Assembly: GCA_051294375.1 (NCBI GenBank)
Contig: CM119268.1
Coordinates: forward strand, 6,643,232 to 6,707,231
Length of the DNA stretch: 64,000 bases
Direction of reading: 5' to 3'
From: Paraspadella gotoi
Taxonomy: Eukaryota; Animalia; Chaetognatha
Position 1 is the stretch's first letter. The number at the start of each line of letters is the position of its first letter. The position numbers were made by a program, and so were the translations under genes. The notes under the pieces were generated by a model, which was given only the letters and a program-made list of their open reading frames with translations, did not search any database and was not told where the DNA came from. Of this stretch, positions 3,348 to 64,000 are shown piece after piece.

Positions 3348-3734
3348 TTATTCGTCATCCTCGTAGCCGTCGGGCAGGGCATTGTACTTCGAATGGAAGA
3401 GGGTGTGATTCCCATCGCCCCAAGGGAACGCTTTTGACCGTTTGCGAAGATGATCATAAGCAATGAATTCCGGTCTGAAAAAGTCAAAAAGCATTTCTTG
3501 AGTCTTATCGCGTTCAATTCGAAATTGACGAGCAAAAGACCTTGGATGTGACAAGTGTTCCATCTCTCCGAGATAGGCGTTGACCCCGGTGAGAATGATC
3601 GCCGGAAAAGCAACGAAGATAGAAATACCCTTCCACATCTTCATGGATCCGTGACTTTGGCCGGCGCCGAGGCCTTTTCCTAACCTCACAAAGGAGGTGG
3701 ACAACTGACGCCGGATGGCGAGTCCCAAGGACAT
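3348..3734 (-). CDS. COX6A: Cytochrome c oxidase subunit 6A (2 exons; intron 3475-3540)
   Basis: MWKGISIFVAFPAI TM helix and PEFIAYDHLRKRSKAFPWGDGNHTLFH..YNALPDGYE. Removing the 66-nt GT-AG intron restores HPR-PEF. Confidence 0.95.
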   Translation of the reverse strand: MSLGLAIRRQLSTSFVRLGKGLGAGQSHGSMKMWKGISIFVAFPAIILTGVNAYLGEMEHLSHPRSFARQFRIERDKTQEMLFDFFRPEFIAYDHLRKRSKAFPWGDGNHTLFHSKYNALPDGYEDDE

Positions 3735-4080
3735 GGTTAGAGATTATTTCGCCTTCAGCGATTTGTTGTTTACTACAATAATTTTTAAAAATATGACATG
3801 GATAAAACAATCTGGATAAAGAGATTCCGTGGTTAACACGAAAATGATAACAAGACAATATTGACATAATTCTCAAAAACTTGTTTCTAACAAGGTTAGA
3901 CTACATGAAAATGTCATGTATGTACTGTCGAATAACTAATGAAAAACGAAACACGCGCGGCGCCCGCTTTTATATACCTACCCGACTGTTACTGAGTGAA
4001 ATACGACAGATTATAATCCTCGCTTGGGATGATTGGAAGAATAAAATCTCAAGCTCGGTAATTTCATAGCGAATAGCGAG

Positions 4081-4996
4081 TCAGAGAGTCTTTCGACGCT
4101 CCTCGAGCAAAATGTTTTGAACTCCTGAATAAATAATTCTTAACGCGTCGAGTCGAGGCCAGAGACTTTGGAACAAAGGATAAACGACGTCGTCCGTCGC
4201 GATTCTTGGATTCGACAATCTTGGATCCGTGGCGAGGAGTTTGACCGGATATCGAAGACCGTTGATCGAAGGAACACCCTCCAGCGGTTCATCATCGGCC
4301 TTGCTCGGAATACTCGATGGTCCCGACTCCGGCGACGACGCGCAGGTCGTTTCGAAAGCAGGAGGACGCGTCCGGAGGATAATGGCGAGGTAGAAGAGGA
4401 AGCGATGCATGGAGACGCCCTCGTTGATCACGAGGTCTTTGACGCGACTCTTATCGACAAAGAAAATCTCAGTGCGACCGGAAGCATAAGTTGTTGTGTG
4501 TTGAAAGCCGAGGGCGGAAATCACTGCGGTCATGGGATAAATTAGGAATTAGAGTTCATATAAAATTAGAGGAAATTATACGACGAAAGAAAGAAAGATC
4601 ACTCCTTTGGGATCTCCATTCCTCATTCCCCATACTATACCTAAAAGGGACTCTGATTTGATTTTTCTCCGCAGTTTCAGAAGTAATGCGAGGCATAGAA
4701 ATATGAAAATGGCGCCCAATATGTGTAGGTCTTTGATGTAGATTTCGAAAGCGAGTGAGAAGAAACTAGCGAGAAACAGAGCTTTCGTCAGAATTCGAAT
4801 ACTTTACTATTGTTATAAAATCGCTTTTCACATCCAGACCTCACCTTAACGAGGCTGTCAAAGTAAGCCACTTGCCATAATTGAAAGTCGGCGCGGCGAC
4901 GACGAACTCTTTGCATATTCCTGGGGAAAGTTCGCGAATTTCCAGGGTCAGTTCTTGGCCAAACACATTTTTGCATTTTGAACGAGAGTCGAGCAT
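4081..4996 (-). CDS. PIGH: GPI-GlcNAc transferase subunit H (3 exons)
   Basis: Spliced reading gives MLDSRSKCKNVFGQELTLEIRELSPGICKEFVV..., a TM segment, then KIKSESLLVISALGFQHTTTYASGR...KDLVINEGVSMHRFLFYLAII...YPLFQSLWPRLDALRIIYSGVQNIL. Confidence 0.85.
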
Positions 4997-5591
4997 AGTA
5001 GGGGCGCGCGGTCGTAAAGGAAAAAAAATACGCTTCGTAGTTTGGCCGATTCAAAAGTTTACAACCGGTAGCTTGATACTATCAAGAAAATAAACACGCA
5101 TCATTTCTTTTGACAACAGTGAGGGTCAGGGAAGGAGGTTTTTTTAAAAAAAAGCAAAATCTCGAATCGGATTAAAGGTTGCATTGTTTCGTGCAGATCA
5201 AAAGTGGTATCTCTGATGAGCGGGGTTTATGTCCAACATCTCCACGGGCTACATTCTACGTTCTAGTGGGGGGGGGGGTCATGCGCAATTTTTTTTTATG
5301 ACGAATTACCCAAGGAAAATAAAGGTGACATTCTGAAAAGCCAGACTAGCGATTTGGAAGCTGCAGTCCCTCGATATTCTTCAAATAGCAACCTCACGAC
5401 AGCAATTAATTTAATTAAAACTCAATCGCCTACGTATGTTCAATAATTTTTGTCACTACCGACTAGATTATACAGCGGTTACTATTCATTAAAAAAAATT
5501 CTTACGTCTACGTAAGGGGGTTTTAAATTTAGTCCATGTAGTTAGACACGATCAAAAGCCAGTAAAAACAACATTCTCCGACTCCTTTTCG

Positions 5592-7800
5592 TCAATGTCT
5601 GGGCGGCTGAGCGGCGGCCTCGGCGACTGCGGCGGCAGCGGTTTCAGCCGCCCTTTCTTTTTCGCTGGCCCTAATGGCCTCAAGGCGCAGCGCCTCTTCG
5701 TAATCCAGCACCTGGCGCTGCACTTGCCGTTTGTACTGCTGCTGTTTGTAGTAGAGCTTGAGCAGGCCCTTGAGCAAAAAAAAGCTAAACCCTCCGAACA
5801 TGGTCCGCCTGAAATTGTTTCTCTGTTTCTTGAAAAACATTTGCCCGAATACTGTGGCGATGGTGGGCCACATCATGGCACCGACGAGGATGCGAGTGGC
5901 GCTGACGGCGTCGGCGATCGTCGAAGGGTCCGCCGGAACTCGCGTCGTCTTGTTAACCGGCGACGTTCCAAAGTAGGGCTAAGAAGTGGGCAAAAAATCT
6001 TAAAAGTATAGTGATCTCGCCAGACGTTACTGTCAAAGAAAATTAATGAAAAAATCCGAAAAATCCGAAAAAAAATGAATGATTGATAGGATAACGAATT
6101 ATTGATGTAATAATAATTGATTAATTGATATAATAGTAATTGATTGATTGTTTGATGTAATAGTAATTGATTGATTGTTAGATATAATAGTAATTGATTG
6201 ATTGTTCGATATAATAGTAACTGATTGATTGATGTAATAGTAATTGATTGATTGATGTAATAGTAATTGATGTAATAGTAATTGATTAATGATGCGATAA
6301 TAACCAAAGGATTGGTACGATAATAACCAAAGGATTGATGCGATAATAACAAAAGGATTGATGCGATGATAACCAAATATTGATGCGATGATAATCATTC
6401 ATTGACGTGATGATAGTTATTCATTGATCCGATGATAATCATTTATTGATGCGATGATAATCATTCATTGTAAATAAAATCAAACAAATGCGTGTATGAC
6501 ATATATGAGACATGAGACATATATTTAAAAGAGTAAGAGATAGAGAGCTGGACAGCTGAACTAAATAAAAATTGTTTTATAAATAAAACAAACGAGTGTA
6601 AGAATATGAAACGTGTGTATCTAAAAGATCTTGCTGATTAAAAGCTATATCTAAATTTTTCGCTTCTTATGGTTACACACTTGAGCTATTTTCAATATTA
6701 AAACAGCGTGACGGCGACGACGGCTACGGTCACAAAGAAGCCAAAGCAACCCGAATCACGCCAAGACGAGATAAAAATAATGTCATAGTAGTTTAAAATA
6801 TAATAACAAATCGACATAAAAGATTTAATTACCTGCCAATAGGTGCGGTACAACTGCAGAATGTAGTCTTCCCAACGAGTCATTTTGGCGAGTACCAAGC
6901 CAACGGGAATAGTGGGCAAACCGATGAGGAGGAGAAGAGGGTCGCTCTCTTCCATCCAGGTCAACCCCTCTTTGTGACCCATAACCTGCATTAGCGTGAT
7001 GGCGCCGTAGGTGACGGCGGACCAGTAGGTAGCGCCGATAAAAATAGCGCCCGCGATGTAGGGACAAGATTTCGAGATGGTGTTTTCGGCCAGGTTAAGA
7101 AGGTGAACGGCGTGATTGATTTGTGGGAAGATGAAGGCATATTCCTTGTTGCACTGAGGACAAAACACTTTCGCCACAGAGTTCCCCTTTTGTTTTTCGT
7201 CGATCCACCTTAGTGAATAACGATTGCAAAATTTCATCATCTATCCGCAAAAATAAATGTATCCTTTCTATTTTAACTTAACACTTTTGACGCCTTCATA
7301 TTGAATCTACTTATGAAACCGTTACAATCATTTACTCTGAGTAAAAATACGAAGATGCTACCATAAATTTAGATTTTCTTCCCGACATGAAATTTACTCC
7401 AGATGACATGATCAATTGATAATTGATCAATGATCATCCTCTTTTATTTCTTTTTGCCCTTTTCATTAACCTTATCGCGATTCCGAGAGACGAAAAATCA
7501 AGAAAAAAGTTTTAAATGTCACTTAAATGGCTGTCTCACCAGGCTACCAGAACACTTGTTTTCGAAATTTTTTTATCACCATTTTCACGCTGGAACTAGT
7601 GATTTGCTACAATACCTGTTGAGACAATTCTGGTGAACCCATTTCGTGGTTCCGCGACAACCGCAAGGGCGCACCCACTCCTCTCGCGGCGCGTCTTCCT
7701 CGGAGGCGAAGCAGACCCAGCAAGTGCGAGAGTCGTCGGCGAGGGAGGGCGAGCGGAGATGAGCAAGCGGCGAGCGCGACGGAAGACGAGGCGACGCCAT
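5592..7800 (-). CDS. MARCHF5: Mitochondrial RING-CH E3 ligase MARCH5/MITOL (3 exons)
   Basis: RTCWVCFASEED...WVRPCGCRGTTKWVHQNCLNRWIDEKQKGNS...CPQC; YWSAVTYGAITLMQVMGHKEGL; ADAVSATRILVGA...YYKQQQYKRQVQRQVLDY. Confidence 0.95.
6095..6470. repeat. AT-rich minisatellite (~19-23 nt units, e.g. GATGTAATAGTAATTGATT grading into GATGCGATGATAATCATTCATT) in MARCHF5 intron 2
   Basis: Direct tandem copies visible in the sequence. They explain the spurious I/N/Y/Q-rich ORFs in the track. Confidence 0.85.
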
Positions 7801-8292: not shown

Positions 8293-11200
8293 TCATTTGA
8301 AATCGAGGACGAAAGTGCGAATCTGCATCGGTTTCAACACAATCTTCGTTCCTTTTCCCTCGAAATTCCCACCGACTTTGTCCGGAGTGGAGGCTCCGTT
8401 CGCGGCCCTCCACACCAGTCGGCGCGCGTTGGCCAGGTCGCGGTTGGCGCCCAACGTCTTCTCCGTGACTTTGCCGACGGCTAAACCGGCGAAGAGATCG
8501 GCGACGTCGACCGTCGCCGGTTTGGAAAGGATGGGATCTTCGCCCGCCTCGTAAAAGTGCTCGAGGCGCAGCAGGACGGAGCGACCCTCCCACGGCTCCA
8601 GCGTTAGGAGATGGACGTTGGGCGGTAAAGGACGCTTCAGGCCAGAGAACGAAGTGTGAAAGAATCTTGAGTAATCGTTGAAGTGATAAGGTGAGGGGGA
8701 AAAGGTAAGAGAGGGCGGAAGATAAGTTTTTTGAGCAAATGGGCGATGATCCTTCGCTGCAGACGACGCGTGGTGGAGGAATACGAAATGACTTCCTCTC
8801 ACCACTAACCCTGAATTAAATAGAACAAGTGAGTTTAAGAAACTACCTATGACTATGCCATACATAAAAAATATGTACGTAGTAGACTAAGAAAACTAAC
8901 CTTTTCCGGAAATTCCCGTTTCGTTCAAAGCCTCATCAACGCCGAAGGCATCGTCGTACAGACATCGTCGGTGCAGCATGAGTTCGATCTGAGATCAAAA
9001 ACATCATTTTCACCTTTCTCAATGACCTCGCTCGAAAAACTGCTCTTTTATCCGACCTGTCCATCATTGAGAGAAGAGCCACCTTGCGATCGATCCGTTA
9101 ACACTGTTAATTGTAAATCTTTCTTTAAGTCTTTGATGTAGATGCGGCTGTTGACCTGTAAAACAAATGATCTCCAACTATAAAACTGGTACAAACAATT
9201 CATGGAGAAAATATGTTTGAGCGAGTTGTTAAGCTTACCGGGTAATAATTTCCGGCAACGGGTTCGGTGATGTTCAGCTTCCAAGTGGGCCGGAAGTTGA
9301 CCTTACGACGCTGCATCTCCCTCCCGTTTGAGTCGGTATAGAAGACTTGGTCGGAGGTGAGGTCGGAGGAGAAGCGGGAGATGATCTCCTTCCCAACGCC
9401 GTCGCCGACCGGAATCGGCCCGATCGTCCACGAGACTTCGAAGTGGGGGGAATCTTTGTAAAGACGGATCACCTGGGGGATCGGAGGAGATCGGGAGTCT
9501 CGAAAATCTTTTTTTTTTGTTCAAGATCATTGGCAAATGACGAAGAAAGAGAATCGCAGACACGGCACCTGAGTGGCCCAGTCGGTGAAAATTTGACGAA
9601 CTTCGGTGACGCTCTTCCCGGCGACGACCCGAATCTTCGCCGCGTCGGCGATCGTCTCGGCCTTTTGCTCAAGAGGGCGAAAGACGTAGGCACCGGAGGC
9701 GCGAAATTCAGGTTTGGTGTTGTTTCCGGGATGAGAATCATAGTAGAGAAGATCCTGCCGATGTAATTGATTTAAAATTTAAATATTTATTTAAATCTAA
9801 TTCAAACTTTTCTCAATATTTAAAATTAAAATTTAAAAGTAAAATTTAAAAGTAAAATTTTGCCTAAATATTTATTTATATCTTTCCGCTGACGATATAT
9901 TTCATAACTTTCTTTCCAACCTGAATGACTTTCTGCTTTTGTCCAGAATTTAGGTTGGCCACCTCCGCCAGTTTTCCGCTCGTCCCGTCAAAAGTGAGTC
10001 GGATTGCTCCATTGTCGACCACCACGTCTTTTCCTTTCGGATTATCGAGTTGGCGCGCCGTCTCGAAATGAGTCTTCGGGGTCGACGATTTGTAAACAAG
10101 GTAAGTGGCAAATCCCAAAGCGGGTAAGCGCATGGGAAAGACCAATTCGTGAGTGGCCTTTGATTTTCGGCCTGGTAGAGTTTTTGTTTCTGCGAAAGCA
10201 AGAATGGATTTCTGAATCATATGCATGCACGTATATTTGTTATCGCCTTTGGCTTTTCAGGCTTTAAAATCAAATCAAATCAACGAAGTGCTTTACCTTC
10301 GGAAATTTCTACGATCTGGGATAGTACTTGATTGCCATTCGGATCATTGACCAAAAAGGATGACCCACTGGGTGCCTCGACTGGCAAACGCACCCAGAAA
10401 GCCTTCCTTTCCCATCCAACCGGATTATATCCCGTGACAGTAAATAGGTCGTAATTTGCGGATTCCGAGCACTAGAAAGATCACTAAGAATCATGGCTAT
10501 TGTCATCAGCAAAACATCAACATCCAAATAATTATTTGGGCGCCCTTTTCTCGATTTTTACCTGGCTGATGTTCAGTAGCGGACAGAACATCTGCGGCAA
10601 GGGCGCCGGCGTCGCCGTGTCTTCTCTCGGAGATTCGCTGCCGATCGGAGCGGTTTTGTTCATGAGTTTGCGAAGGGCGGGATTCACTACGCCGTCCGCC
10701 GCTGGAACCAGCGCCTCTGTAAGGCGTTGTGCATAATCGTAGGCCACGACCTGATAGGGAACAAAGATTCAAGCGCGTTTGTCGAGAATGACTAAAATTT
10801 ACGACGGATCTGGTCGAAAAACCTGTTTCTCAGTTCCGGAAATTGCGTCGTGGTGCTGGAGAACGCCCAGTGCCCGGCGAAGCTGGTTGATTTTGAATTG
10901 CGAACTAGGAACCGGTTATTTAAAGGTTATTAATCATTAATGGCAGACTTGGTTATATTTCCATCCTCAAACCTATGGGCAACGTCGAGTTGAGACAAAA
11001 CGTCGAGCTGCTTAACGACTTGAAGAAAAGCGTTGGCCTCAAAGGCGTAACGCTTGAGGGCCGGTCGTGATGTAAAGTAGCCCGTCCAATATGTGTGTGG
11101 CTCGCTAAAAAAATAAATAGTGAAATTTGTTCCATCGCCGACGATTACGAAGAAATATTTGCGCCCAGGACGCACCTGGCGTAGGGAAAAAAGTCGTCCG

Positions 11201-13159
11201 ACTTGGTGGGCCAGGTTTCATTGGTTTCGTGGAGCGCGTATAAATAGCATGACGGCGTAGAATAAAAGAGATTTATCTTGCTCCCGTTGACTTGACGTTC
11301 GTTCATGTGCTTGATCAACTTGTCTAGGTTCGTATACCTATATTTTTAAGATTTTAACTTGTTTAGTAGTATGTTCTAATTTAAAGTATATTTTTTTGAA
11401 TTATTTACCAGACATTAGCGTCAAAATAATTGAAATCGGTACCCATGGTGTTGATAATATGTTCAGTTTTGTAGTTCTTTCGCTCTTTAAGCGTTTGGTT
11501 AATATATTTCTCCAACTTCTCAATCAAATTATAATCTTTCATCCGTTTGTCGTCTTTTATATCATCCGCGCCGTACCTAGGATAAAGTAGAAAAAAAAAA
11601 AACAACTAAAATTCTTGCTCTATTAAATAAAGTAGTTTGAGAGGACGAAAATCTTAAAAATTTTTACAATTTAAAGCTCACTGAAAACTGATTGCAATGC
11701 ATTTAAAAAAAAGGATTCATACATGAGTCTCCTTTCTTCCCCGAGTCCTTACCATCCGAAATTAAAACCATCCGGTGGATTATAGCCATTCGGCAGTACT
11801 CCAGTAAACAGGGTGCTGAAGGAACCTAGATTATTGGGGCTCCCTGTAGGGGGAAAAAAGTATCAAAATTGGCTACAATCGATGACCTGTTTTTCTATTA
11901 TGTAGTATGCTTTTGTAACCGGCATAATCCGATGATTAGCAAAAGCTCAAATATTATGTCCGGAAATTTTGAGTCGATAACGTAAATTATACCAAAATTT
12001 TTACGAACCGTTCCACAGCATCTCCATAGTTTTCTCCTTTTCCCTTTTATTCTTATCGTCCTGGTCGAGCCTGCCGAAGAATAGGCCGTCGAAGCCGAAC
12101 TGGGCGAAGATGGAGGCTTGCTCCCGAGAGTGACCAAACGGGTCGATCTGCCATCCGATCTTCGGAATTCCGCATTCGCCGAAGTTCTAATAAGGGAATC
12201 GCGATGTTATATTCAATTCCTGGGGAGATTTTTGTGGCAAAACTACCTAAGGGCGAAATAGTTTACATACATTTTTTTTCTCTTAATCTACGGAAAAGAT
12301 TTATATACCTGTTTAAGAAACTGGAATCCAAGCGTGTGTTGGTCAATGATGGGGCTGTAATGCGTCGTCGCCTCGTCGTTCATCGACCATCCACCGAGGA
12401 TGAATTCAAACTGACCATTGCGGACGAGGCGTTTGACCTGAAGGCCAAGGGGAGCGTATCTAACTTACATCCCCCAAAGCGACAGATACAAAGAAAAATA
12501 ATTGTATATGTATATTGTATAATAACATCTAAATCACCAAGTGGCGCATGCGATCGTGCTGCTCGTTCCACCAGCGATAGAAAAAGGCTGATTCGACGTA
12601 GATGAACCTTTTGTTCGGATCCTCTGCTAATTGCTGCACGACCGTGTTGAGGATGTACTGCACGTAACCTTGGCACCAAAGTAACGCATTGTAATTACGA
12701 TCACCTTTATTTTGCTCAACGATGAAGTTGTGGACGACACAAATTTCAGAGTAAGACTGAATTTATTCTTTAACATGCTAAGACTATTAAAATGGTTTTT
12801 ACAAGGTCAAAGTATGACCATAAAGAGACAGAAAACGATCGAGGGTAGGTTTAGTAAGGTCAGGTTTGACCGAGGTTGCGTGTGATAATTGTTCGTCCAC
12901 AAAGTAATCATTGTTATTGGCATCTTTCGCTCCTTAAATATTTTTTTACTGGCAACTTACGGTAATAGTACTGATCTACGGTGGTTAGCCAGCCAACGTC
13001 ATCGTGAGTGTGGGGCACGATGTGAACATTGATCATCCCGGGTTTGCCCTTGGGACAATTATCGTATGAGCACGAGGTTCTTGCACCGTGTAGAAACATG
13101 ACGACAAGAATCGTGGAAGGAATTAACCAATTCATGATTGTTTTTTTTATATTCGACAT
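8293..13159 (-). CDS. MAN2B1: Lysosomal alpha-mannosidase (GH38), multi-exon; start 13159 or 13135
   Basis: Signal peptide, [88 protein letters not shown]-terminal LKPMQIRTF. Confidence 0.95.
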
Positions 13160-13325
13160 TCGTAATCTATTTAAATAAAGATCAGAGCACGACTAGTTAT
13201 ATAATTATAAATATATAATAAAGTAAATTTCAAATGGCAAAAATAAAAATCACAAAATATGTAAAATTAAAATGTCAAGTAAAAGTAGAGAAAAGAGTTA
13301 AGCGCCCCGTCCCTCTTAACTACTA

Positions 13326-13466: not shown

Positions 13467-14042
13467 TCAACGATAACGAAAACAAAAATAACCGACGGCA
13501 CTGCCGAGCAACGCAGAGGCGAAAAATCTCGCGTCGCCAGTCATAACGACCAACATGAGAACGTAAGTTAATAATAATCTCGTGCACCGCAAACCCGCTT
13601 GAGCGGCCTGGCGAACAGCCGCTCGTAAAGAACATGAGTCAAAGGCCCAAGTGGGGCAAGGAGACGACGATGTGGGTGCGGAAGGATGCGTTGAGTTGGG
13701 CGATGTCGTCGTCGCTTGCAAAGACAAGTTAGCGGTCGGTCGCCCAAAGCTGGTCGTCAAAGTCGAAGGTACAGCGACGGGTGGCAGCGGGATGTCGTCG
13801 CTGGACACAGAATCGGCTACCCACGAAACCGCGCAAGATTCCGGTCTGGACCTGGAACCCCGATCGGCCTCGCGAATATTTGAGCCGCCAGAGGAGGAAA
13901 GGCGGCGAAGAATGAGGTAGAAGGATTCCTGAAGGATGCAGGCCACGAAGACGACGAGACAGGCGGCGAAAACGTGAGCGGGCGAATCAGTGCGAATCGA
14001 TTCAAAAAGAAAAGTCTCGTTGCGACCAAAGTGAAAGAACAT
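13467..14042 (-). CDS. Ctr/SLC31-family copper transporter, intronless
   Basis: MFFHFG..ETFLF N-terminal motif, TM1 FAACLVVFVACILQE, TM2 YVLMLVVMT (MxxxM), TM3 GSAVGYFCF (GxxxG). Confidence 0.85.
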   Translation of the reverse strand: MFFHFGRNETFLFESIRTDSPAHVFAACLVVFVACILQESFYLILRRLSSSGGSNIREADRGSRSRPESCAVSWVADSVSSDDIPLPPVAVPSTLTTSFGRPTANLSLQATTTSPNSTHPSAPTSSSPCPTWAFDSCSLRAAVRQAAQAGLRCTRLLLTYVLMLVVMTGDARFFASALLGSAVGYFCFRYR

Positions 14043-14219: not shown

Positions 14220-14762
14220 TCATTTCGCGACCGACTGTTTTTCGAATTGTTTCCATCTCAGCTCCAGCGATTTCGAATAAGCGTCCAATTTGTAAGCGGC
14301 CTGCTCCAACTGCGTGACGCTCTCCTCGATGCGATCGATTTGCTCCAGTTGGGGAGCGATATTGGCGTATTTTTCGTTGATTTCTCCCAGAGCCTTAGCG
14401 ATGTTGACTCCCGTCTGCTTCATGTCGACGTACTTGTCCATAGTCGCCCTGCCAGACAGATTAAAAAATGGATTTAGGAATTCCTCGCTAATCCACCTCT
14501 TCCTGCGCCACCTGTTCATCTTCTCCAAAACGAGGTAATCCTCGGCGACGGTTTCAAGTTCGCCGTGGAAGTAGGCAACCACCTTGTCGAACATGTCGTG
14601 GCTGAGTTGGTGGAGGGTGTCGCGCTCGGGATTCGACGCCAGCGTCGAGTTGGAATTGTTCAGTCCTGAGTCGGGGGGAGGGAGAGGGTTGATCTCCACG
14701 TTGTCAGCCGATTCTGGCGTGGAGGAATTCACGCCTGGATCCCGGTTGTTGTCGTCCTCCAT
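14220..14762 (-). CDS. BLOC1S2: BLOC-1 subunit 2 (2 exons)
   Basis: MFDKVVAYFHGELETVAEDYLVLEKMNR|ATMDKYVDMK...LEQIDRIEESVTQLEQAAYKLDAYSKSLE. Confidence 0.93.
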   Translation of the reverse strand: MEDDNNRDPGVNSSTPESADNVEINPLPPPDSGLNNSNSTLASNPERDTLHQLSHDMFDKVVAYFHGELETVAEDYLVLEKMNRWRRKRWISEEFLNPFFNLSGRATMDKYVDMKQTGVNIAKALGEINEKYANIAPQLEQIDRIEESVTQLEQAAYKLDAYSKSLELRWKQFEKQSVAK

Positions 14763-20067: not shown

Positions 20068-20959
20068 TTAACCGAAGGTGTTTCCGGCGCCTCCGGCCAT
20101 CTCCATGTTGGATTCGATCATCTGGAACAGCTCCTGCGCCGACGGTATCCTGCCAGTTTGGAGTTTGCTCCACAAGCTAATCCCGTTAAAATCGATTTCA
20201 AAGGCGCCTTTAAAAAAATGATTTTAATAACTATTTATTTATTGTCGCTATTCAACAACATTTTTATACATTTTTAGTAAAAACAAGATCGTCGCAAATG
20301 CAAAGCGATTGCGACGATAAAAAACACTTACCCGTCGAAATGAGTTGACTTTCGATCATGTTTCCCAAGAAAAACGCCATCATACAAGCGTAAACTTTGT
20401 TTTCCATGGCCCAAGTAAAAGCCTCGGGAGTGACCATGTTCAAATAAGTAAAAGGATTCTGACCCAGGACAATGAGGATGATGAAAGCGAATTTTAAGGC
20501 ACTCAGTGTTTGAGCAATAATCTGCTTCGGAGGAGGAGGAGGGTAATTCCCACCCTCTACCTTCAACCCCGGATAGCGATCCTACGATAATGAACAACGA
20601 AAACAAATAGATGGTGAGAAAGTGAGGAATCGGATGGAAATCAAAGTTGTCGAACCTTAATCGCTTGAGACATTTGCTCAAACACGTTGCGGTATCCTCA
20701 GGAGTAACAGAAGAGGAACTTGATTGTGGGAGTGGCGTATTGACTCAACTTGGGGGCTCGAATCTCTCTCTCCACGTCAACAGCGTGTGTTTGACCCTGT
20801 TATAGGTTAAACAATACACATTGTTTGAGTTTGGCAAAGTGAGCGGTGAAAAGGTAAAAAGAATAGGTTTACCGTGGGCCAAAAGATTTCCTTCACGGTG
20901 AGGGCCATCAGCAAAACCGCTACGCTCCCGGCGAGGCCCAGTCCTCCGGGATAAGCCAT
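20068..20959 (-). CDS. SELENOT: Selenoprotein T (4 exons; Sec UGA at 20698-20700)
   Basis: Spliced reading gives IKFLFCYS-TGA-GYRNVFEQMSQAIK DRYPGLKVEGGNYPPPPPKQ...ENKVYACMMAFFLGNMIESQLISTGAFEI...WSKLQTGRIPS, a CxxU motif, with a SECIS downstream. Confidence 0.95.
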
Positions 20960-51447: not shown

Positions 51448-53601
51448 TCACTTCTTCGTCTTAAAGGAGACGCTGAGCGGCTTCATAGAATTCCCCCGGA
51501 AGGGCATTCCGTGCAGGGCATCGATGGCGAGCAGGGCCGCGTCGTAATCGGGCATCTCCACAAACCCAAAGCCTTTGCATTTGGCCGAAGCGTCGTGAGA
51601 CTCGCGCATAACGTGCACCTAAGGTAGTATGTTATTTTTTTTTAAATTGATTTTAATATTTAATTTGTGTCACTTCGGTTTTTTTTTTCATATTTACAGA
51701 TATAATACATTCGAGATACTTACTTTGGTCACGGCACCAAAGGGAGCAAAAAGCATGTAAAGGGCAAGCTCGTCGGCGTCCGGACCGAGATTGTAAACAA
51801 ACAGCTGGTGACTTCTTTGCGCCAATGCATCCTGACGCAAATATTATTTTTTTTTTACATACGATCCATGATATTAATTAGGTCGAACTTTATTACAAAA
51901 CGGAAGGATTTAAAAGGAGACCTGCAGGGAAAACTTTGGCCTGTGAATGACCGGTTGGTGAAACAAATGCGGAACGGCGGTCATCGAGTGATTGACGGAA
52001 TGTAAACGAGATTGCACGGAGACTGGCTGCGGAGGTGGGGGAGGGAGAGGACGTCGGGTGGGCCCGTTGACGCCGCCGCCGTCGGGAGCGAGGTCGACGA
52101 CGTCGAGATTGGCTGAGCCGGTCGGACCGGCAGCATGGTTCGACGCCGTTACGGGGACGTAGTGATGGACTATATGTTGGACGCCCCCGGTGGGAGATTT
52201 GATGGTCTCTTCGCGAGTCCACCCAGGGTCGGGAAGGGAATCGCGGAGGCCGTACCTGACATATAAAGATAGAAAAAATATATCGGCGTCAAAGTATGCA
52301 TTGCATTTTATTTTATTTTATTTTATCATTCTTTTTTAATTCATTTTTTCATAATACCTAGTGCCATGATAAATGAAAGAAAAAAGCTAAAATAAATAAA
52401 GCGAAATATTCATTAGTCAGCCTTACCAAAAGTGTTCGTAGGAAGGCGCCGAGGCTCTGTTGATCGTCTCTTCTTTGGGTCTGACGATGAGATTTTTGGT
52501 GGATCCCGGAAGGCGGGTGTCGTGAAGGCCGGAGATGGCGTCCTCGGCCTCTTGACGTCGGGAAAAGTGGACAAAAGCCACCCCCTTGGAGGCAGCCGTG
52601 TTGGGATCTCTGACTAGTTTGCAGTTGCGGACTTCGCCGTAGGGAGAGAAGTAGTCGCGAAGAGTCGTCTCATCCATCGCCTACGATTCGGCATTAAATT
52701 TACCCGAAAATTGTCAAAATAAAAAGGGGGTGTCAGATAAAAAAAAAATATTCTCACTTTGGGAATGTTGGCGACGTAAAGATGGGGATTAGTGCTCTTA
52801 GGTTCGTCTTTTTTCTTTACCACCATCTCTTTTTCTGTTCCGGGATAAACTTTTCCGTTCAACTCGTGAATGGCGGCTTCCGCTTCGGCGGTTTTCGAGA
52901 ACAGCACGAACGCGAACCCGCGGGATTTTCCTGTCGGAAGTAAATGACTTGAGTGCGTCGAACTGGGGAAGGGGCATCTCCGCATTAACGTACCCGTCTC
53001 GGGATTGACGACCAACTTGCAGTTGTAAACCTTGCCGTGCTCCTCGAACATGGCCTTGAGTCTATCTTCTGTGGCGCAGTCGGGAAGATCAGCCACGTAA
53101 AGATTCGCATCGCGCGTCGATTCTCGAGTCTGCTTCGGCCGAGCGATGGAAACCTGGTGAAGATCACAAGGCTTCTAATATTTTAAGACAGAATAACTTG
53201 TGGTTCATTTCGAATAAAGTCAACAATATTTAAGATGCCCCCCGTTAGATCTACATTTAAATAATGGCATTTAATAAAAAAAAAAAGCCTTTAAATAACG
53301 TTCTGAAAAACCGAAAACATCTAAAACAGCTTATGAAAAAAAAACCAACCTTCATAGTCTTGCCTTCCCTCTGCTTCCCGTTGTAAGCGTCAATCGCCTC
53401 CAGTCCGTGCTTGGGGTCCTTGTAATGCACAAACCCAAAAGCGAGAGACTCTCCCGCTTTGTTGCGCATCAGCTTGTAGGCCTCCAGCGGCCCAATGCGG
53501 GAGAACATGGCCGCGAAACCTTCGTCAGTCAGCGAGGACGGCAAGTAGTTGACGATGAGGTTGGAGCTGTCGAGCTCCCCGTCCTCCTCCATCGCCGTCA
53601 T
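51448..53601 (-). CDS. ELAV/Hu/Sex-lethal-like RNA-binding protein with four RRMs
   Basis: RRM1 NLIVNYLP...SLAFGFVHY...KTMKVSIARP, two RRM2-like domains ([17 protein letters not shown]; [17 protein letters not shown]) and a terminal [37 protein letters not shown]. Confidence 0.88.
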
Positions 53602-54100: not shown

Positions 54101-55865
54101 TCAGTTATTCCATTTGGCCTTAAAAATGGTTGATATGCTAGGGTAAGCAACCCAGAGAGACTCGTCGTCGGAAAGCGCGATGGAAACGGGACCCTCGGCA
54201 GTGGGAGTCGAATCCGAAACGCAAGCCTGCGATGTCGACAAGACGAGACTTTTTTATTATTATTTTTGAACCAATGTTACATACTTAGTAAGTTTTGCTA
54301 TCGTAAAAACATTTTTTTTAAGTCTCCGACAATGCAAACTAATTCTATCCTGACCTGTCGCCAAAGAGGTTCCCCGTGAACGACGAAAGTAAATCGCCAA
54401 GACATGGAGGCGACGCCAGCGGAATCCGTGGCATAGGCAGACACGCAATTTCGTTGAGTGTCGGCGATGAGCAAAAGATTCCGCGGGCTGCGATTTTTCG
54501 TAAAACATAATTAAGAAACCATCGCGAGTGTAAAATATTTTCTTAGTTTGCCTTGGCAAACCAGCATAATAAAAAAATCCACCTATGATAGACAACGTCG
54601 CATGGCATCATCATATTTGCGTCACCAGTCCCTCGACCCTCGCCTAATAAATACATCAGCTGAACGTTTTTGTCGAATACTTTGACGGCGGGATTGTCGG
54701 TGCTCGAATCACAGACGTAGCTTCGAACGAAAAATGTGACGAGATAAACAAATTGGCTCCTGCTTTCCATCTAAAAGGAAACAACTCACATGTTCTGCTC
54801 CTTGTCCACCGCGATTCCAAGGGGTTTTAACAGAGTCGGCGTCGCAGATACTTTTTCCTTGGGATTAGGTTTTCGAGGTTTCTCCCACAAGTGAGAACCG
54901 TTAGAGGCGGAAAAGGCACGTACCGAGTTCGAGGTAGAGTCTGTGACGAGGAAACGCGATCCCGTCTCGTCAAAGACGATGCTGCGCCGAAATCAAATAC
55001 AACAATAAACATTAACTATACAAAGGATTACAGGTCATCTACCTGAATAAGGGCCTGGCCGCTTTCTTATCGACCACGTATCGCGATTTGACAGTGAATT
55101 CGAAGCCAGGTTTAAAGTCGAGAAAGGGGCGAACCGTGGCGTTGACGATGCGGTGACTCTCTTTCTTCAAACCCAGCATTTTTGATACCTGAGAATAGAC
55201 GGCAAGGGTGTTAGGAATTGGAGGGACGTGGGAAGGATCAGGAAAAGTGTCTTACCTTAATATCTTCCGTGACGACGATGACAATGGCTTCGCCAGGGAT
55301 GACGCACAAACACTCGACGCCACCGGACATGGCAAAATTGCGGAGATACTTGCCGTTTTTATCGAAGACCTGATCAAAACCAACTAAAAGCTATGAATCA
55401 CAGGCTTAACTCACATAAGCAGAGAATGGAGTCGAGGAAACTGCCACAACTTCTCCCACTGATACCTTGATCCTAGGTTGGCCGAGTTCTGCGACGAAAA
55501 GTTCATGGGATTTAGGATCGACGGCGAGAAGAGAGGGATGCCAGGCCGGGGCGCCGAGAAGAGGACCGCATCCCGTCTCGTCAATGCGCAGAAGGATCGT
55601 TGCGCTCTTCGTGTCTGCGTTGTAGAAAATTTTAAAATACGCAGTGATTTCCTAAAATTCGCGATTGATTCAGTACAAAGGGAGTGATGAGCTTTGGTAA
55701 CTGAATTGATTGTCTTACAAACTTTAAACTATCAATCATCCGTTTTTTTTTATAAGGAAACTCACCTGACGGAGTAGGTTCGTCTTTAGCAGTGACCGAC
55801 CAGGCCTTTTGTCCTGAGGGATGCGGACGAGGACGGGTGGAGGGATGACTCAAGCGAGATGACAT
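54101..55865 (-). CDS. NHL-repeat (beta-propeller) protein, many small exons
   Basis: Manual splicing yields LAVDPKSHELFVAELGQPRIKVFDKNGKYLRNF, IVFDETGSRFLVTDS, PLGIAVDKEQNIYVCDS...VKVFD, LLIADTQRNCV and PVSIALSDDESLWVA. Largely missed by the ORF track. Confidence 0.75.
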
Positions 55866-56258: not shown

Positions 56259-57650
56259 TCAAGGACAGGTGCTATCGGCGACGGCTCGAGTGCTGGTTGT
56301 TGCGGGTACGATGGGAAGCAGCTGCGGCCGCGGCGGCAAGGAGGACGCCGACGATGGAGTCGAGGACCGCGTCGCGGATCCGACTTCATCGACGGTTTCC
56401 TTCGCCGCCGGCGCCGATTCCTCTTCCACTTCCTTTTTGAAAGGGATGCCGGGCATGACGCCGGCTTCGACAGGCGGACGCGAAGCCGTTCCATTGAGTC
56501 TCGATGCGTCCGTTTCGTCGGGGTGAGCGTAACCGTTGAGCCGAGGGGCGGAGGGTTTCACAGAGTCTTCGGCGCCGGGTTTCGAATCCGCTAGCGAGGG
56601 GGCCGAGGTATCTTCCGAAACTCCGTTGATCTCGTCATTGATCGTCGTCAAGGTGACGACTTTGGAGTTCGAGGATCCAGAGGAAGTTTTTAATTTTTTA
56701 TTATCAAGCATTTCGGTTTGCATCTCCTCCCGTTTCGCTTTTGTTTTCAGATCCACGGAGACAATCACGCAATCCAAAACCATGGGAGAGTCTTTCCCGA
56801 ACCAGTGTCTAAGAAAATCACTATAAACGGCTAAGTTTTGAACCAATACACGTTATCTGGAACAAACCTACCTCAAAGATACGCTCTTGAGCGTAGAGAA
56901 TGGCGACAAGAGCGAGTCGTTGCACAGCATCTCCAGAGACAAATGAGAGGGTATGGAGAGCAGTCTCGAGACCAGCGCGACGACATGCGCTACCCGCGCG
57001 CGAGAGGAGCAACGTAAAAACCGCCGCTTGAATGTTCTCAGAGGCGTCTGCAGTGTATGGAGCGAGGCGTTGATGCACGAAGCGGGGAGCGGTTGCAGCG
57101 ACAAGGAAATGTGCTCGTCCGAGGCGTGACTGTGAAGGGGATGGAGTTTTGAAAAAATAAATATCGCGAAGCAAGAAAAGAGGAACACGGACGAACCCGT
57201 TAGATCTGCGCGTTTCTGTGACCGCTAGGGAGTGCTTCTGCTCCGAAGACTGATCGTCGTCGAGTCCCCGAGATTTGTAAAAGTGCTTCCTCCGCTCCTC
57301 CTCGGCTTCGTATAGATGGGGAACGAGTTTAAAGACTATATCCTGGAATACAACAAAATCGTTGTCACAATTGGTTGTCACAAAATAAGCAACCCAGATT
57401 TGCTGTGGCTCACCTGGAGTGTTCTGTCCGACCTTAGATTGATAAGCGGTTGCGTTTCGTGTATTTTGGTGTTGCAATTGGGACAAAATTTAGATTTTTG
57501 CAAATATTTGACGATACAACTTTTGCAAAATGTGTGCAAACATTCAGTTATGGTAGTTGCGTCTATATAATATCCAGCGCATAGAATGCAAACAATATGA
57601 GCGTTTAGTTCTCTAATTTCGATTGTCAATGGCTTGTCCGGATCCATCAT
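56259..57650 (-). CDS. PCGF1: Polycomb group RING finger protein (PCGF1-like): RING plus RAWUL plus disordered tail
   Basis: [55 protein letters not shown]...[17 protein letters not shown] and the [19 protein letters not shown]. Confidence 0.88.
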
Positions 57651-57836: not shown

Positions 57837-60800
57837 CTATCCCAAAAAGTCGTCAAGTTCTAATGCGGCGTCCACCTTCCCAGAATCGATTAGCGGCGCA
57901 GCGAGTCTCTCTTGAGTGTTGGGCGCGGGCAAAGATATTTGTCCACCCGAAGCTAGAGGCGCCAGGCAAGGTCCTGCAAGTGGCTGTGATGGCGGAAGCG
58001 CTGGCGGCTGCCTGACCATTTGATTGAGAGAAGGCGGCCGGCCTTGACCGCCGAATGGAAGCAGATTGTCTAGCGATGAAGAAGACGCGAATCGCGTTGG
58101 GTTTGACAAGTTTGGGTTCACGGTCTGGGGAGCTAAAAAGGAAGAACTATTCGGATATAGACCAGCCTGAGAAGACATTAACCCGGGATTTATTTGCATT
58201 GGCATCGTTGATGCGGAAAAGGGTGCTGCAATGCCACCAAACGTCGGTTGCGGTGCAGACGGCATGGTATTAACGGCCGTCGTTGGGGCAAACGTGGCAC
58301 TGGCAAAGGCGTTACCACCCGGAGCCAGCGGAGTCGGCATTTGACTCATCACTTGTCCGGTCCGGCTCGGATGCGGAGTTAGGCCAGAAAAGGACGAGGC
58401 CGCTGAGGCGGGATTAACAGTCCGCGAAGGAGCCGCAGCCGGAAAAGGAGTCGACTTGAGAAGCGTTTGAGTCAAGTCTTTCGTATTTGTCATCGTTGAC
58501 GCGGATTGTCCGAACGAGGCTGAAGCTGAAGATTGAAAAGGAGCGGAGATCGAAGCAGCGGCTGTGGGCGTGGCGCTCGATGATATTTTGATCGGGCTCT
58601 GGCGTTTCATCATGTTCGTGTTTTCTTGCTCCTTCGCCAGACGCATCTTCTCCTCTAAAGTCAAAGAGTTGGCAGTCTTGGTGGACGTCCGTTGGGGAGA
58701 AGGCTTCGGCGTTGCTTCTCCAATTTCTTTCTGGCCCAACATCATCTTTTTCAGTCCGTCCTCGGAAAAATCGTCGGGCATCGATGTGTCGCTGGCCGTC
58801 TGCAGTTGTGTCAGTTGAGATCTAAAAAAAGTGGGGGATGCTAAATCACAATCGGATTAGAATCTATCACACTTGATTTCGCTGACCTCCTCTCCGTTTC
58901 GACTTGAGTTATCATTTGCTGGATGACTTTTGAAAAGGCATCAAACTGGGAGAGACTAAGCGAGGATTCCATCATGATAGGTATGAGGAATGGAAGCACC
59001 TTTCCCGCCAAAATTTCCAAGGTTATACCAAGTTTCTGAAAGATTTATGTACACGACCGGTTTCAGGCTTTGAAAATCTTGACAGGTCTGGTTAGTTCCA
59101 CGGACTCACCGGATGAGTAAGAGCAGTTTTATAAATGCCTAAGACGGCCATGAGAATGGCCGGTTCGGAAGTCTTAAAAAGAGGAAGTATGGGAAGCACC
59201 TCGTCCAGTACCAGCCATTTGTCGCAATGCTCCAAAATTTTTCCCAAGCAAACCAAGCAGTTTACTCTCACACTCACTGGAAAACGGGCAATTGCTACTG
59301 AAACAAAACGACCTAAACATCAATTATTACGACCATAATAACTAACCTGCTGTGGAGTCTATGGCCAACTTCTTTATTCGTGGAATAATAGAATTTCTAA
59401 AAGAGTTGTAATCAAGCATAGATGCGAAGGCCGGTAGGTTGACCAAACACAACTCTTGAATTTCGGGATGTGGAGCTTCCAACGCCCGATATATCATTGG
59501 CAAAACGTGCTCCTATTTAAAAGTATTAAAATCTTTATGAAAGAATAAATTAGTTGTGGATAAAAATAAGGAAATGTCAAACCTTAATGTGTTGCTGTTT
59601 GGCTTTCGCCAATATTATACTCATGTTCTGCATAAATATGAGCAAAATTTGAATTGGATCCTGCACGAGCATCAACGGCAACAGCAAGGGTTGAACGAAA
59701 GAATTGTATTCTTCCCCCGTAGCTTGTTCGCCTAAAAAACATCTTCGAAGATCAATTTTGATCAATAGGAAAATAAAAAAGGGGATAATAAAAATTCTAC
59801 GAACCAATAATGAAGATATTGGGAAGAATGAAAGGAACCATCTCTTTGTGATGCAACTCATTAGCCAAGCAAGTCAAAACTCTCTGAAGGCAAACCCTTT
59901 TCGGAAGTTTTTTAATTATCGCTGGTAGACTGCGATAGAATTTGGATCGAGCGAGATTGTCCTAGGAAGGAAAACGTTCACCTTAAACTTATACAAAAAT
60001 TAAACTAAGCGACGTTTGAAGGCACCTTCTCGAAAAGAGTGTCGAGAAAGTGAAGAGCCATAGCCCCGACATCTTCGAAAAAGGGAATCTTGCTCAGCTG
60101 CTCCGCGTCCGGCCGAACTGAGGAAAGAAAAGGGTACGAATGTAGTACGTATAAAAGATATAATATAATAATAATATAATATAATTATATATACCGGAGG
60201 GCTCTAGGTTAAGAAGCAGCTTGACGTGATCGCGAGCTTCCACGGGAATGCTATTGAGCATCACAGCCGAAGTCGTTTTTCTCTTTTCGAACTGAGACTT
60301 TTGATTGCTAAACGCAGATAAGAGAATCTCATTGTCTCCAACTTAAGTTAGAAAAACCAAGGCGTACATATTTAATATTAACAAGGTAGCTGTACCTGTA
60401 GCTTCCTTTGCATTCACTGACCGGGCGTCCGTCATTAAATAAGGCGTGGAAAAGAACACCGACTGAATACATATCGCTGTTATGACAGAAATTCTTCCAA
60501 TTAATATACAGTAATTACGCAGTAATTTCAACGCAAGTACACCAACCATCATCCTATGAATATTTATCAGCAGGATAATTAACACCTGTTCGGTCCACAC
60601 ATGAGTGTGAGAAAATATTCAGGCGCCATGTAGTCTAAATTCGGCTGGCAAATAGTAGGCGAATTTGGATTCCAGTGGGGACATGGGTAAGAAGCTGGTT
60701 CACCGGCCTGAGCTGAATTCGACAAGCAACACTCAAAACCTGAAAGAGGATTGGAAGTTTAACCGCGCTGATTGAAAGGGCTTGAAGCGAATTTCGTGAT

Positions 60801-61752
60801 TTTTACCCCCGACTTTCCAAGAGCCGTTATTATTGATATAAACATTCTCTGGGGTTAAATTCCTGTGAATCATCTTGACGTCGCGGTGTAAGAACGCCAA
60901 CGCTTCCGACACTTGAAGTAGGCCGTATTTGATTTCCACCTCGTGAAGCTCAAAATCTGCGAAAAGAAACCAAACTAAATCATGCAACCACCACCACATA
61001 AAACAAAATCTTTCCAGAAGGCAAAACACAATGACCCACTTTTAAAAAGGGCTCCTTTTTTGTCCAAAACGTTTGCGAGGCTACCAAAGACAGGCTCCGT
61101 GCAAAAGGCAAGAGAGTCGCGAGATTCTTCGAGCGGGTGCTGCACGGTCAGGAGTCGAGGATGACGTAGACGCGTGAGGCGGGAGACGCCCGAACGAAGA
61201 AAATCAAGTACGTATTCACGATCTGATTATAAAAGGATGTGTATACTGTATAGTCTCTAGCCGATAGAGGTTAACGATATTTATTATTTAATGATTGGTT
61301 TTTCATTCTCACCGCCTTTTGAAAGTCCCTCGATAACCTTCTTTTCAAAAAGAAATATGGACACTTCTTGCTTAGTGGATTTCTTTACCCCAGAATAGAT
61401 TTTCCAATGACCGTCCGGCCCGCCGGACCCAGTTAAATGACCTTGCAAAGTTAATTACAACAGTGACCTTAAAAATTGTATTAAAAAAAAAAACGAATAT
61501 TCTCACCAGCATCGTATTCTCTCGTAATAGGGTTTCCAGGCAAAACGCTTGAGGCAACTTTTAAACCGCTCGTGAATTTCTGTCATGAAACATTTAATAA
61601 TTAAATACAACGGCAAAGAGTACAATGTCCAAGAAGATATCTTTGTAACGGACCCTAAACATGTCGACTTTGATTCCGCGAGTTTGCTTCCCTAACTCAT
61701 CGGCCAATGCCTTGGCCTGAGCGCAGGCGTCCTTGGCAGATTCCGACATCAT
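57837..61752 (-). CDS. SCYL2: SCY1-like pseudokinase 2 (CVAK104), multi-exon; start uncertain
   Basis: VLPGNPITREYD, LTRLRHPRLLTVQHPLEESRDSLAFCTEPVF, EVEIKYGLLQVSEALAFLH, PNLDYMAPEY, SVRVNCLVCLGK, LTLEEKMRLAKEQE and a terminal ELDDFLG. Confidence 0.93.
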
Positions 61753-62117
61753 CTTGGCTCCACGCCTTGTTACGTGCCGACGAGTTTTTTCAAAAGCGAC
61801 ATATTACCCAATTTTCTTCAAGTTTCTTTTATGAAAAAAAATTTGATGACATTTGAATTATTTAATTATCAAAAAGAATATTTAAATATTTATTTTCATT
61901 AGAATTCCAACTAATGCAAGGCTCGTACACGTGTTACCATTTTTCTAAAATTACATTCACACTGTTGAGCGTATAAGGTTTTAAATACAATAAAAAATAA
62001 AAAATATAAAATAGACGTAAGGTAAGGAATAAAATAAGCTCATTTTTTTCAATTAAAACACTGGAAACGGATACACGGCAAAATTAATTGTATCCATTTT
62101 AGCATCACAGAGGGAGA

Positions 62118-64000
62118 TCAGAGACGGCAGGTGTTGCTCCGGGAAGCTCTCGAGTTTCTTGTCGCTCTCGTCGACGGCGGCACGAAGCGAGAGTGGTTCG
62201 ACTCGTTTCTTCGCCTGTTCGCCTTCCGGACATCTCGTTTTCGGGAGACGGAGTTAGGCGTCGTCGTGAGAGTCGTCGGGCGCTTGTTTTCGCCTCCAAC
62301 GCCGCCACGGCTTCGCTTACGAGCGATACGGACAGGCGCGGGCGTGAAAGTTGGTGGGGTAACGCAGTTTCGATCGCGAAGACGACGCCGCGTCCAAATG
62401 GACGATCTCGACTTCGTCCTAACGTTTTCCTCTTCGTTTTCTTCATCTTCGTCTCGTTCTTCTTCTCCTTCGTCCTCATCTTCTTCGTCCTCATCTTCTT
62501 CTCCCTCGTCTTCTTCCTGGTCTTCTTCCTGGTCTTCTTCATTTTCCTCTCCATCTTCTTCTTCCTCTTCGAAAACGTCGTCTTCTTCATCGACCCTCTC
62601 CTCGCATTTCGTCGTCCTTCGCACCCTACTCGTCGCCCTCCTACGGGGCAAAGATCTCCGCATGAGGTTATCGTTCTTATCCTTAACGGCCTCGTGTTCG
62701 ACCTCGAGGCGCTTCTTCAGACTCTCAACCTCCCTGCGCAGTCTCTCGATCTCCGCGTCTCTCTTTTTAATCTCGACTCGAAGTGAGTTCAACTCTTTGC
62801 TAAATTTGAGACGCTCTCTCTCCAGCGCGTCCTCTTTAGGGGGCGATGTCGACGACGTCGCTATTGGTTGAAACCTGACCCGTCGCCTGTTCGCCGCTTT
62901 TTCCGCCACAATAACCACGTCGGCGTCGTCGTCTTCGTCGCAGTGGGTCGAGGTTGGCATTCGAGATCGAGATTCCGCTTCCGCGATGAAGCCAGAAGGG
63001 AGTTGGAATTGCTGCCGTCCATTACCCCTGGTTCTCAGGGTCATTTTGCCGAAACATGGAGTAATGGACGTCGGGGTGCTCTTGGGCGAAGGGGGGGGAT
63101 CGTTCGATGAGGGCCCGGTGGGAGCGTTATCTTTGGCATCATTGTGGGAGTTTGACGAGGATTTACGCTCTGCGTTTATAGAATAAAATTCAAAACGACT
63201 CACTGACGAGTTGTGTACGACATTGTTCGTTGAATGATAAATAGGTTTCCTGCAACGTCTACATGATTTTTCAGGCAATTTTTACCGTTTTTTCGTGAGG
63301 ATCTCGTGACACGAGTCGATCTCCGAACGGCCTCTGGTGTTGGGGTCGGGATTTCTGCGTTCTCTGCTGCTTTTGACGCAGAAGAAACTATAGACAAATT
63401 TAAAAACAATATTTTTTTCTCTCTGCTCACATTGAAAACGAAAACTCTTACCCTTTGAGGTTGGCGACGTCGCCTCTTCTTCCGACTGAGACCCCTTCCG
63501 CGATCGCAGCCGCTTCCTCCGCGGCGGCAGCGTTTCGCTTTCGTCGCTCGAATCTGTTCCGGTCGAAGGTGGTCTCTTCGGAGGTTCCCAAGGAGAGTCC
63601 TTTTCCGGGACCGGAGTGGGCGGCTTAACGTCCGGCGTCAAATTTTCCTCGTGGCGCTCCAACCGAACAACGATTTCGCGATCCAAGGGTGTAGAAGTTA
63701 CGAAGGGTGTGTCTGCCATTGGCGAGTGGATCGGAGTAATGTCGGTGATGGTGGAAGTAGGTCCTCTCACTGGAGTGGCGAAGCGGGTAGGCAAGCGTGG
63801 GACGGCAAAGGCGAAGTCAGGCTCGGAAACCCGCTTTACAGGAGTCGAAGTCACCTGCAAAAAAATGAGGTCCAAGTGTGATCTATATATATAATCAATC
63901 GGTTTAGTAAGTTTTAAATGAAAAAAACCCTCGACCTGACAAGCTATACTCCTCAGGGCAACAGGTTCGATTTCTTCTTCCGATTCGCTGTTCGAATCCT
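62118..64000 (-). CDS. 3' part of an unknown gene (S/T/P-rich, coiled coil, acidic tract, basic C-terminus); 5' end outside the window
   Basis: Open frames 63282-63875 and 62118-63278 are joinable by short GT-AG introns and have exon-like composition. No family was recognised. Confidence 0.65.

Follow-up and report, generated by a model that had tools for sequence, protein, structure and literature searches.

Gene content and orientation of the array

We analysed a window of 64,000 nucleotides from contig CM119268.1 (assembly GCA_051294375.1, positions 6,643,232 to 6,707,231), whose minus strand carries 25 non-paralogous genes arranged head to tail from position 3348 to the window end, a run of more than 60 kb (Table 1). 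A first-pass annotation had placed all genes from COX6A to the window end on one strand, and this was borne out by Pfam matches, gene models and RNA splicing. Pfam families were assigned to 21 of the genes from a scan of 272 of the 320 minus-strand open reading frames (ORFs), and QDPR was identified by a homologue search instead. No family match was obtained for the partial gene at 62118-64000, the NHL-repeat-like gene (a name given by eye) or an ORF of 959 codons, which are represented by ab initio models or by a long ORF; an Atlas search with the 959-codon ORF was uninformative, all leads scoring below 0.9 and the first match 0.83. The orthologue names SCYL2, PCGF1, TRMT44, AUH, MARCH5, CK2 and ELAV are labels placed on Pfam domains. 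Initial ab initio models called too many small introns, recovered 10 of 15 introns seen in RNA and gave no model for the aldo-keto reductase gene (AKR), which has four of them; the splice matrices were then rebuilt from 62 curated introns.

On the plus strand, all 283 stop-to-stop ORFs of at least 50 amino acids were compared with Pfam and no gene was found between 3348 and 64000. The sole match above the curated cut-off was a MYND finger (171-2615) outside the array, in a gene that is convergent to COX6A and closes the run; three matches below the cut-off (E 0.004-0.01) fall inside the array. Intron-like elements numbered 40 on the minus strand versus 6 on the plus strand, a comparison that is partly circular because the matrices were trained on minus-strand introns. 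Across 16 gaps and long introns the top plus-strand coding score was 17.6 bits, compared with 4-52 bits in five real small exons, and a small plus-strand exon could still lie within the array. Such exons, together with the missing family support for three genes, are what would favour an artefact, in which hidden plus-strand genes or a mis-assembly created the run. We regard this as extremely improbable, since no plus-strand family above the cut-off appears in the array and RNA contigs from a public sequencing run (X1, see below) keep the gene order of the window over the junctions. No tRNA was found in the window, and no Rfam family reached the gathering score there, including spliced leader (SL) RNA and the selenocysteine insertion sequence (SECIS); two sub-threshold matches were attributed to chance.

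With random orientation a run of this length has p = 0.5^24 = 6e-8, corresponding to 4e-4 such runs per 15,000 genes, and about one run of 25 genes per 15,000 would be expected only if some 70% of neighbouring genes were co-oriented genome-wide. Tandem duplication is not the cause of the array, because the 22 identified genes come from unrelated families. Most of them are housekeeping and germline genes, classes that are enriched in operons (PMC12460157, PMC1657053).

Table 1. Genes, spacers and gaps of the window, in order of transcription of the minus strand
Feature	Position	Strand	Evidence and remarks
Gene 1, Ser/Pro/Glu-rich, no family	62118..64000	-	ab initio multi-exon model; no Pfam match at 1e-3; 5' end beyond window
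Gene 2, pseudokinase, presumably SCYL2	57837..61752	-	Pkinase E 3e-5; model; start codon uncertain
Gene 3, PCGF1-like	56259..57650	-	Pfam RING, RAWUL
Gene 4, NHL-repeat-like	54101..55865	-	ab initio model; repeat by eye; no Pfam match on single exons; 3' end uncertain
Gene 5, ELAV-like, multi-RRM	51448..53601	-	RRM_1 in four ORFs; model
Longest gap, 1867 nt, before AUH	49581..51447	.	T/A skew; acceptor at 49582
Gene 6, AUH-like enoyl-CoA hydratase	48090..49580	-	ECH_1; model
Gene 7, TDRD9/Spindle-E helicase	41857..47712	-	Helicase_C, Tudor; homologues 35-43%
Gene 8, SRA1-like	40383..41364	-	Pfam SRA1 E 2e-4, slightly below the curated threshold
Gene 9, 959-codon single intronless ORF	37404..40280	-	ORF; no Pfam family
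Gene 10, SEPSECS	35381..37290	-	SepSecS in six ORFs; model; AG directly before ATG
Gene 11, presumably casein kinase 2 alpha (CK2)	32893..35220	-	Pkinase; model; name from sequence
Gene 12, BTB-Kelch	29050..31871	-	BTB, Kelch; 3' part in RNA record 3
Gene 13, TMEM106B-like	27411..28866	-	TMEM106_N; RNA introns
Gene 14, QDPR (dihydropteridine reductase)	26279..27229	-	homologues; three RNA introns
Spacer, 225 nt, T-rich, QDPR to AKR	26054..26278	-	RNA record 3 alignment stops at 26071
Gene 15, aldo-keto reductase (AKR)	24423..26053	-	Aldo_ket_red; four RNA introns; stop read by hand
Spacer, 250 nt, before PEX10	24173..24422	-	strongest unpaired acceptor, 14.7 bits (exon start 24192)
Gene 16, PEX10	23176..24172	-	Pex2_Pex12 and RING; RNA record 2
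Gene 17, TRMT44-like methyltransferase	21115..23252	-	AdoMet_MTase; RNA record 2
Spacer, 155 nt, TRMT44 to SELENOT	20960..21114	-	RNA record 2 stops at 21036, with record 1 starting near 21033
Gene 18, SELENOT-like	20068..20959	-	Rdx; three RNA introns
Gene 19, adiponectin-receptor-like (ADIPOR, HlyIII family)	15769..19349	-	Pfam HlyIII; RNA record 1
Gene 20, BLOC1S2	14220..14762	-	BLOC1_2
Gene 21, Ctr copper transporter	13467..14042	-	Ctr
Gene 22, lysosomal alpha-mannosidase (GH38)	8293..13160	-	GH38 N, mid and C domains
Gene 23, MARCH5-like RINGv ligase	5592..7800	-	RINGv; models
Gene 24, PIG-H	4081..4996	-	PIG-H; model; start uncertain
Gene 25, COX6A, last of run	3348..3734	-	COX6A
Single-ORF MYND-finger gene, outside array	171..2618	+	zf-MYND E 9e-5

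Spacing of the genes

Over the 24 gaps the median distance from stop to ATG is 326 nt; 11 gaps, one of them a coding overlap, are at most 250 nt, 19 are at most 500 nt and the other five lie between 595 and 1867 nt. Two gaps hinge on model ends, in the NHL-like gene and PIG-H, that are uncertain. Ten short gaps listed in the first-pass annotation (102, 113, 155, 160, 177, 181, 183, 186, 225 and 250 nt) were re-measured identically, and the single overlap recorded there corresponds to 77 nt of coding sequence shared by PEX10 and TRMT44. TRMT44 has its first in-frame ATG 77 nt within the coding end of PEX10, in another frame (23176-23252), and its next one some 430 nt further on. Just ahead of the PEX10 stop, at 23187, there is a weak acceptor (4.0 bits), and one RNA contig spans the two genes unbroken.

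A cut-off of 500 nt divides the array into six blocks: genes 1-5, 6-11, 12-18, 19 (ADIPOR alone), 20-23 and 24-25. Nearly every gene thus sits in a tight block and all blocks face the same direction, two features that are unusual. The block limit between genes 18 and 19 is crossed by an X1 RNA contig.

Larger gaps had been suggested as internal promoters or operon boundaries. The best candidate for such a unit boundary or promoter is the gap before AUH, judged by its loss of skew: the T/A skew is +0.26 in the first 450 nt and then -0.02, -0.05 and +0.04, so that the distal 1.4 kb is AT-rich with no strand skew. The same gap holds a strong acceptor 2 nt before the AUH ATG. In the gap at 14770-15770, between ADIPOR and BLOC1S2, the ADIPOR-containing RNA contig extends by arithmetic to about 15022, and most of this 1-kb gap is transcribed. 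The third suggested gap, between BTB-Kelch and CK2, spans 31872-32892 and is a candidate boundary.

Splicing and junction-spanning contigs

RNA evidence came from X1, a public run that contains 72% of the words sampled from 18001-28000 and whose RNA nature was inferred from its spliced contigs; two other runs, X2 and X3, held next to nothing of the array stretch. X1 contigs were aligned on 18801-29850 (11 kb). All 15 of the joints listed (from a total of 22) were minus-strand introns, 14 of them GT-AG and one GC-AG. The contigs skip introns, therefore the run contains spliced RNA and the minus strand is confirmed. Three long contigs (RNA records 1 to 3 in Table 1) bridge four of the seven junctions in this region, namely SELENOT to ADIPOR, PEX10 to TRMT44, Kelch to TMEM106B and TMEM106B to QDPR.

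Both of the contig 3' ends listed (21036 and 26071) fall at junctions that no contig bridges, no more than 2 nt from the AG that scores highest ahead of the next start codon, and neither has an AATAAA close upstream. Position 26071 is one base past an AG that lies 18 nt before the next ATG, and six unaligned letters follow on record 3. In the spacer between TRMT44 and SELENOT the top-scoring acceptor predicts an exon start at 21034, and the start of record 1 near 21033 was derived by arithmetic from the listed pieces. Formation of upstream 3' ends at trans-splice sites would give contig ends of this kind, and these two post-hoc cases are a hint in that direction.

Relatives of QDPR and TDRD9

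Two genes of the array were placed in trees with their homologues. In an IQ-TREE analysis of 35 rows chosen from 120 matches, the QDPR of the window falls in an 11-row clade (support 98/98) with ten proteins, mostly derived from metagenomes or the Sequence Read Archive. The closest member, P0126, has 68% protein identity and is encoded by L001, an intronless metagenome contig of 1113 nt that was the one locus obtained from 337 pattern matches, a scan that yielded no genomic neighbourhood. The first 19 nt of L001 match SL1 of Caenorhabditis elegans, as printed in PMC7986045, at 14 positions, including the last eight. Among the 1063 further 25-mers in L001 none scored as high, and of 25,590 25-mers sampled from the window 6 did. 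We read the start of L001 as a putative nematode-type spliced leader carried by a relative's QDPR mRNA; the examined part of the supplementary leader table of PMC7986045 does not contain this variant. Judged by this one contig and one gene tree, the host is likely a nematode with leader trans-splicing.

A comparison with billions of proteins yielded no close relative of TDRD9, identity being about 40% over full-length matches. The protein groups with arthropod (ecdysozoan) rows in a 50-row tree (Shimodaira-Hasegawa support, SH, 95); in a 108-row tree it adjoins one row and its position is otherwise unresolved. The top TDRD9 match, a jellyfish model, owes its high score to an internal duplication and was set aside as uninformative on kinship.

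A chain of operons as the preferred reading

We consider it rather probable, though well short of assured, that the array is a chain of several operons resolved by SL trans-splicing and not one giant operon. A run of this length is improbable under random orientation and its genes are not paralogues; X1 contigs bridge four of seven junctions; the QDPR transcript of a close relative bears the SL1-like leader; TDRD9 groups with ecdysozoan rows; and the gene content is of the class enriched in operons. The median gap also resembles those within operons of Trichinella spiralis, where medians of 250 and 380 bp are reported, and not those outside them, about 2600 bp (PMC7668243). Several operons are preferred over one because the five gaps of more than 500 nt give blocks of at most seven genes, which is within the sizes published for C. 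elegans (2-8 genes; PMC1657053), C. briggsae (2-7; 10.1101/2021.09.24.461604), T. spiralis (up to five; PMC7668243), Ciona (up to seven; PMC7986045) and a chaetognath (up to nine; PMC12460157).

Each block would have a promoter in front of it; the likeliest site is the 1.9-kb gap before AUH, and the gaps of 0.6-1.0 kb may be further ones. Each block would be transcribed as one precursor, reading through the 100-500-nt spacers, and SL trans-splicing would cut the precursor into single mRNAs, joining the leader to an AG a short way in front of every ATG. For two junctions, formation of the upstream 3' end may take place at this AG or next to it, in the manner of SL1-type or Ciona-type operons. 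On this reading the host genome is best regarded as unusually operon-dense. The reported share of operonic genes in other animals is 18-20%, and the common direction of the blocks calls either for hybrid read-through between blocks or for a share far above that range.

Several observations weigh against a chain of operons, beginning with the signals for trans-splicing in the spacers. The best acceptor within 100 nt before the ATG averages 5.6 bits over 21 spacers versus 4.5 bits in dinucleotide shuffles (p 0.076) and 4.6 bits in 49 distant non-coding windows (p 0.20), and nine of the 21 spacers have an acceptor of at least 5.4 bits versus 9.4 expected. The Ur motif (TAYYTT) occurs in nine of the ten short spacers versus 6.8 in shuffles (p 0.08). 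For X1, all 30 bins of 18801-29850, introns included, have contig cover; because introns too are covered, the bridging is ambiguous and may come from pre-mRNA, DNA or overlapping untranslated regions (UTRs), a contig over two genes not being equivalent to one transcript. No spliced leader was seen on X1 contigs, where 7 of 91 loose ends were listed and none of these lies at a gene start; the seven are at intronic repeats or in a contig of another species. The leader evidence is one contig of another species at the protein identity given above. The placement of the host among nematodes is indirect: FastTree (109 rows) joins the QDPR clade to Steinernema (SH 94), which IQ-TREE does not. Finally, introns are short too, with a median of 74.5 nt in the 62 curated cases, and the short gaps may in part be general compaction.

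Only the acceptors of PEX10 and AUH are singly strong; that in the PEX10 spacer has a shuffle p of 0.004, uncorrected, and the best donor in the same spacer reaches 3.3 bits. Counts of AATAAA, TATA and T-runs in the ten short spacers did not differ from shuffles (AATAAA in two of ten, TATA in two of ten), and these spacers are T-rich on the sense strand, with a skew of 0.28 versus 0.14 in introns. Neither an SL1-like pattern nor an SL2-type RNA gene was found in the window. In the spacer between TRMT44 and SELENOT, GGTTTAAAC followed by a GT donor was considered as the start of a leader, and was taken as chance, the T-run lying only a few bases past the donor. Overall, the sequence signals by themselves neither demonstrate nor rule out trans-splicing.

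These non-significant tests and the small introns would suit a compact genome with no operons at this locus, in which every gene has its own short promoter within the upstream gene's 3' end, and the shared direction stems from a head-to-tail bias or from chance. Dimorphilus is a precedent for a compact animal genome with neither operons nor leaders (PMC7854359), and the strong 5' acceptors of AUH, COX6A, SRA1 and SELENOT have a possible upstream donor and could belong to ordinary 5'-UTR introns. We nevertheless think this explanation unlikely: it needs the genome-wide co-orientation of about 70% calculated above for even one such run, it must fit a 3' UTR, a promoter and a 5' UTR into T-rich spacers of 102-250 nt that show no excess of TATA or AATAAA, and it has to accommodate overlapping coding sequences in PEX10 and TRMT44 as well as a leader on the QDPR of a close relative.

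The first-pass annotation had proposed polycistronic transcription, with a giant operon or directional gene cluster as the candidates. Polycistronic transcription resolved by a spliced leader gains support from the gaps, the bridged junctions and the relative's leader; a single unit is not favoured over several. Such a unit, or trypanosome-like cluster, would be driven by a promoter beyond 64000, perhaps with one more before AUH, serving 20-25 genes, and long one-strand clusters would be the rule in this genome. There is no strand switch in 24 adjacencies, the largest gap is 1.9 kb, six independent blocks would agree in direction only one time in 32, and RNA contigs cover two of the five gaps above 500 nt, the one between SELENOT and ADIPOR fully and the one after ADIPOR as far as the contig end described above. 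Set against this, the 1867-nt gap loses its sense-strand T skew over 1.4 kb, as a promoter or untranscribed DNA might, although a long intron is also low (0.08); the largest published animal operons that we found have 5-9 genes; and one window, moreover one chosen for looking extreme, cannot show a genome-wide pattern. We hold a unit or cluster of this kind to be quite improbable. No better chance is given to its fuller form, in which an early-branching nematode, perhaps of the Enoplia, would transcribe 20-25 intron-rich genes as one unit of 46-60 kb or more from a genome of trypanosome-like directional clusters, with upstream 3' ends made in part by the trans-splicing cut.

Other features of the array

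The SELENOT-like gene contains an in-frame TGA (20700-20698) within a C-x-x-TGA motif, which likely encodes selenocysteine. A search of the 718-nt region 3' of SELENOT gave no Rfam match to SECIS. The same run thus holds both a likely selenoprotein and the selenocysteine synthase SEPSECS.

Repeats were noted at several places. The BTB-Kelch gene has a long Asp/Glu-rich stretch and an in-frame 21-nt tandem repeat (30150-30560). An intronic element of TMEM106B (28190-28265) shows very deep X1 contig cover with many loose ends and is likely a high-copy repeat. The long ADIPOR intron contains three near-identical units of about 250 nt (17506-18086) with no Rfam match, and a MARCH5 intron contains AT-rich minisatellites with units of 22-27 nt (6074-6470). 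CpG is undepleted over the whole window, with counts of 76-190 per 2 kb and a GC content near 44%, a level that would fit little or no CpG methylation.

Comparison with known operon systems

The array is like the SL2-type operons of nematodes (C. elegans, C. briggsae and T. spiralis) in that unrelated housekeeping genes lie head to tail with gaps of a few hundred nucleotides and a relative carries an SL1-like leader. It differs from them in its 25 genes on one strand, nearly all in tight blocks, and in its SL2, Ur and poly(A) signals, which were not significant or not found in the window. The genome sampled here has also retained TDRD9, a gene like PCGF1 and a SELENOT with an in-frame TGA, none of which is known from rhabditids; a nematode host would thus likely be an early-branching one. 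According to PMC7668243, trans-splicing in the Enoplia was unexplored as of 2020; the paper also asks whether operon-resolving leaders date to the nematode ancestor, a question on which the array would bear if its host is an early-branching nematode.

A second, tentative likeness is to the SL1-type operons of Caenorhabditis, which have no intercistronic region (10.1101/2021.09.24.461604), and to those of Ciona, with a median distance of 1 bp (PMC7986045). The likeness consists in the two contig ends described above, each no more than 2 nt away from the best acceptor of the following gene and neither closely preceded by AATAAA. As in chaetognath (Paraspadella) operons, housekeeping genes lie less than 250 bp apart, and at that cut-off the array has a block of seven genes and one of four; unlike the published Paraspadella operons, of which the longest has nine genes and which comprise 18% of genes (PMC12460157), it runs over 25 genes on one strand.

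The directional clusters of kinetoplastids resemble the array in being long series of unrelated genes on one strand that stop at a convergent gene. They occur throughout the genome, have almost no introns and contain tens to hundreds of genes, whereas the array consists of intron-rich animal genes and is known here from one window. In the literature searched, which covered few subscription papers, we found no animal operon or one-strand cluster of such size, though one may be published. The array points either to a unit of record size or to an animal genome exceptionally rich in operons, and either would shift known limits; a single unit, if true, would be two to three times as large as the longest animal operon found in print, which has nine genes. 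By analogy the array resembles the operon arrays of nematodes and tunicates, and its genes are candidate members of operons of this kind.

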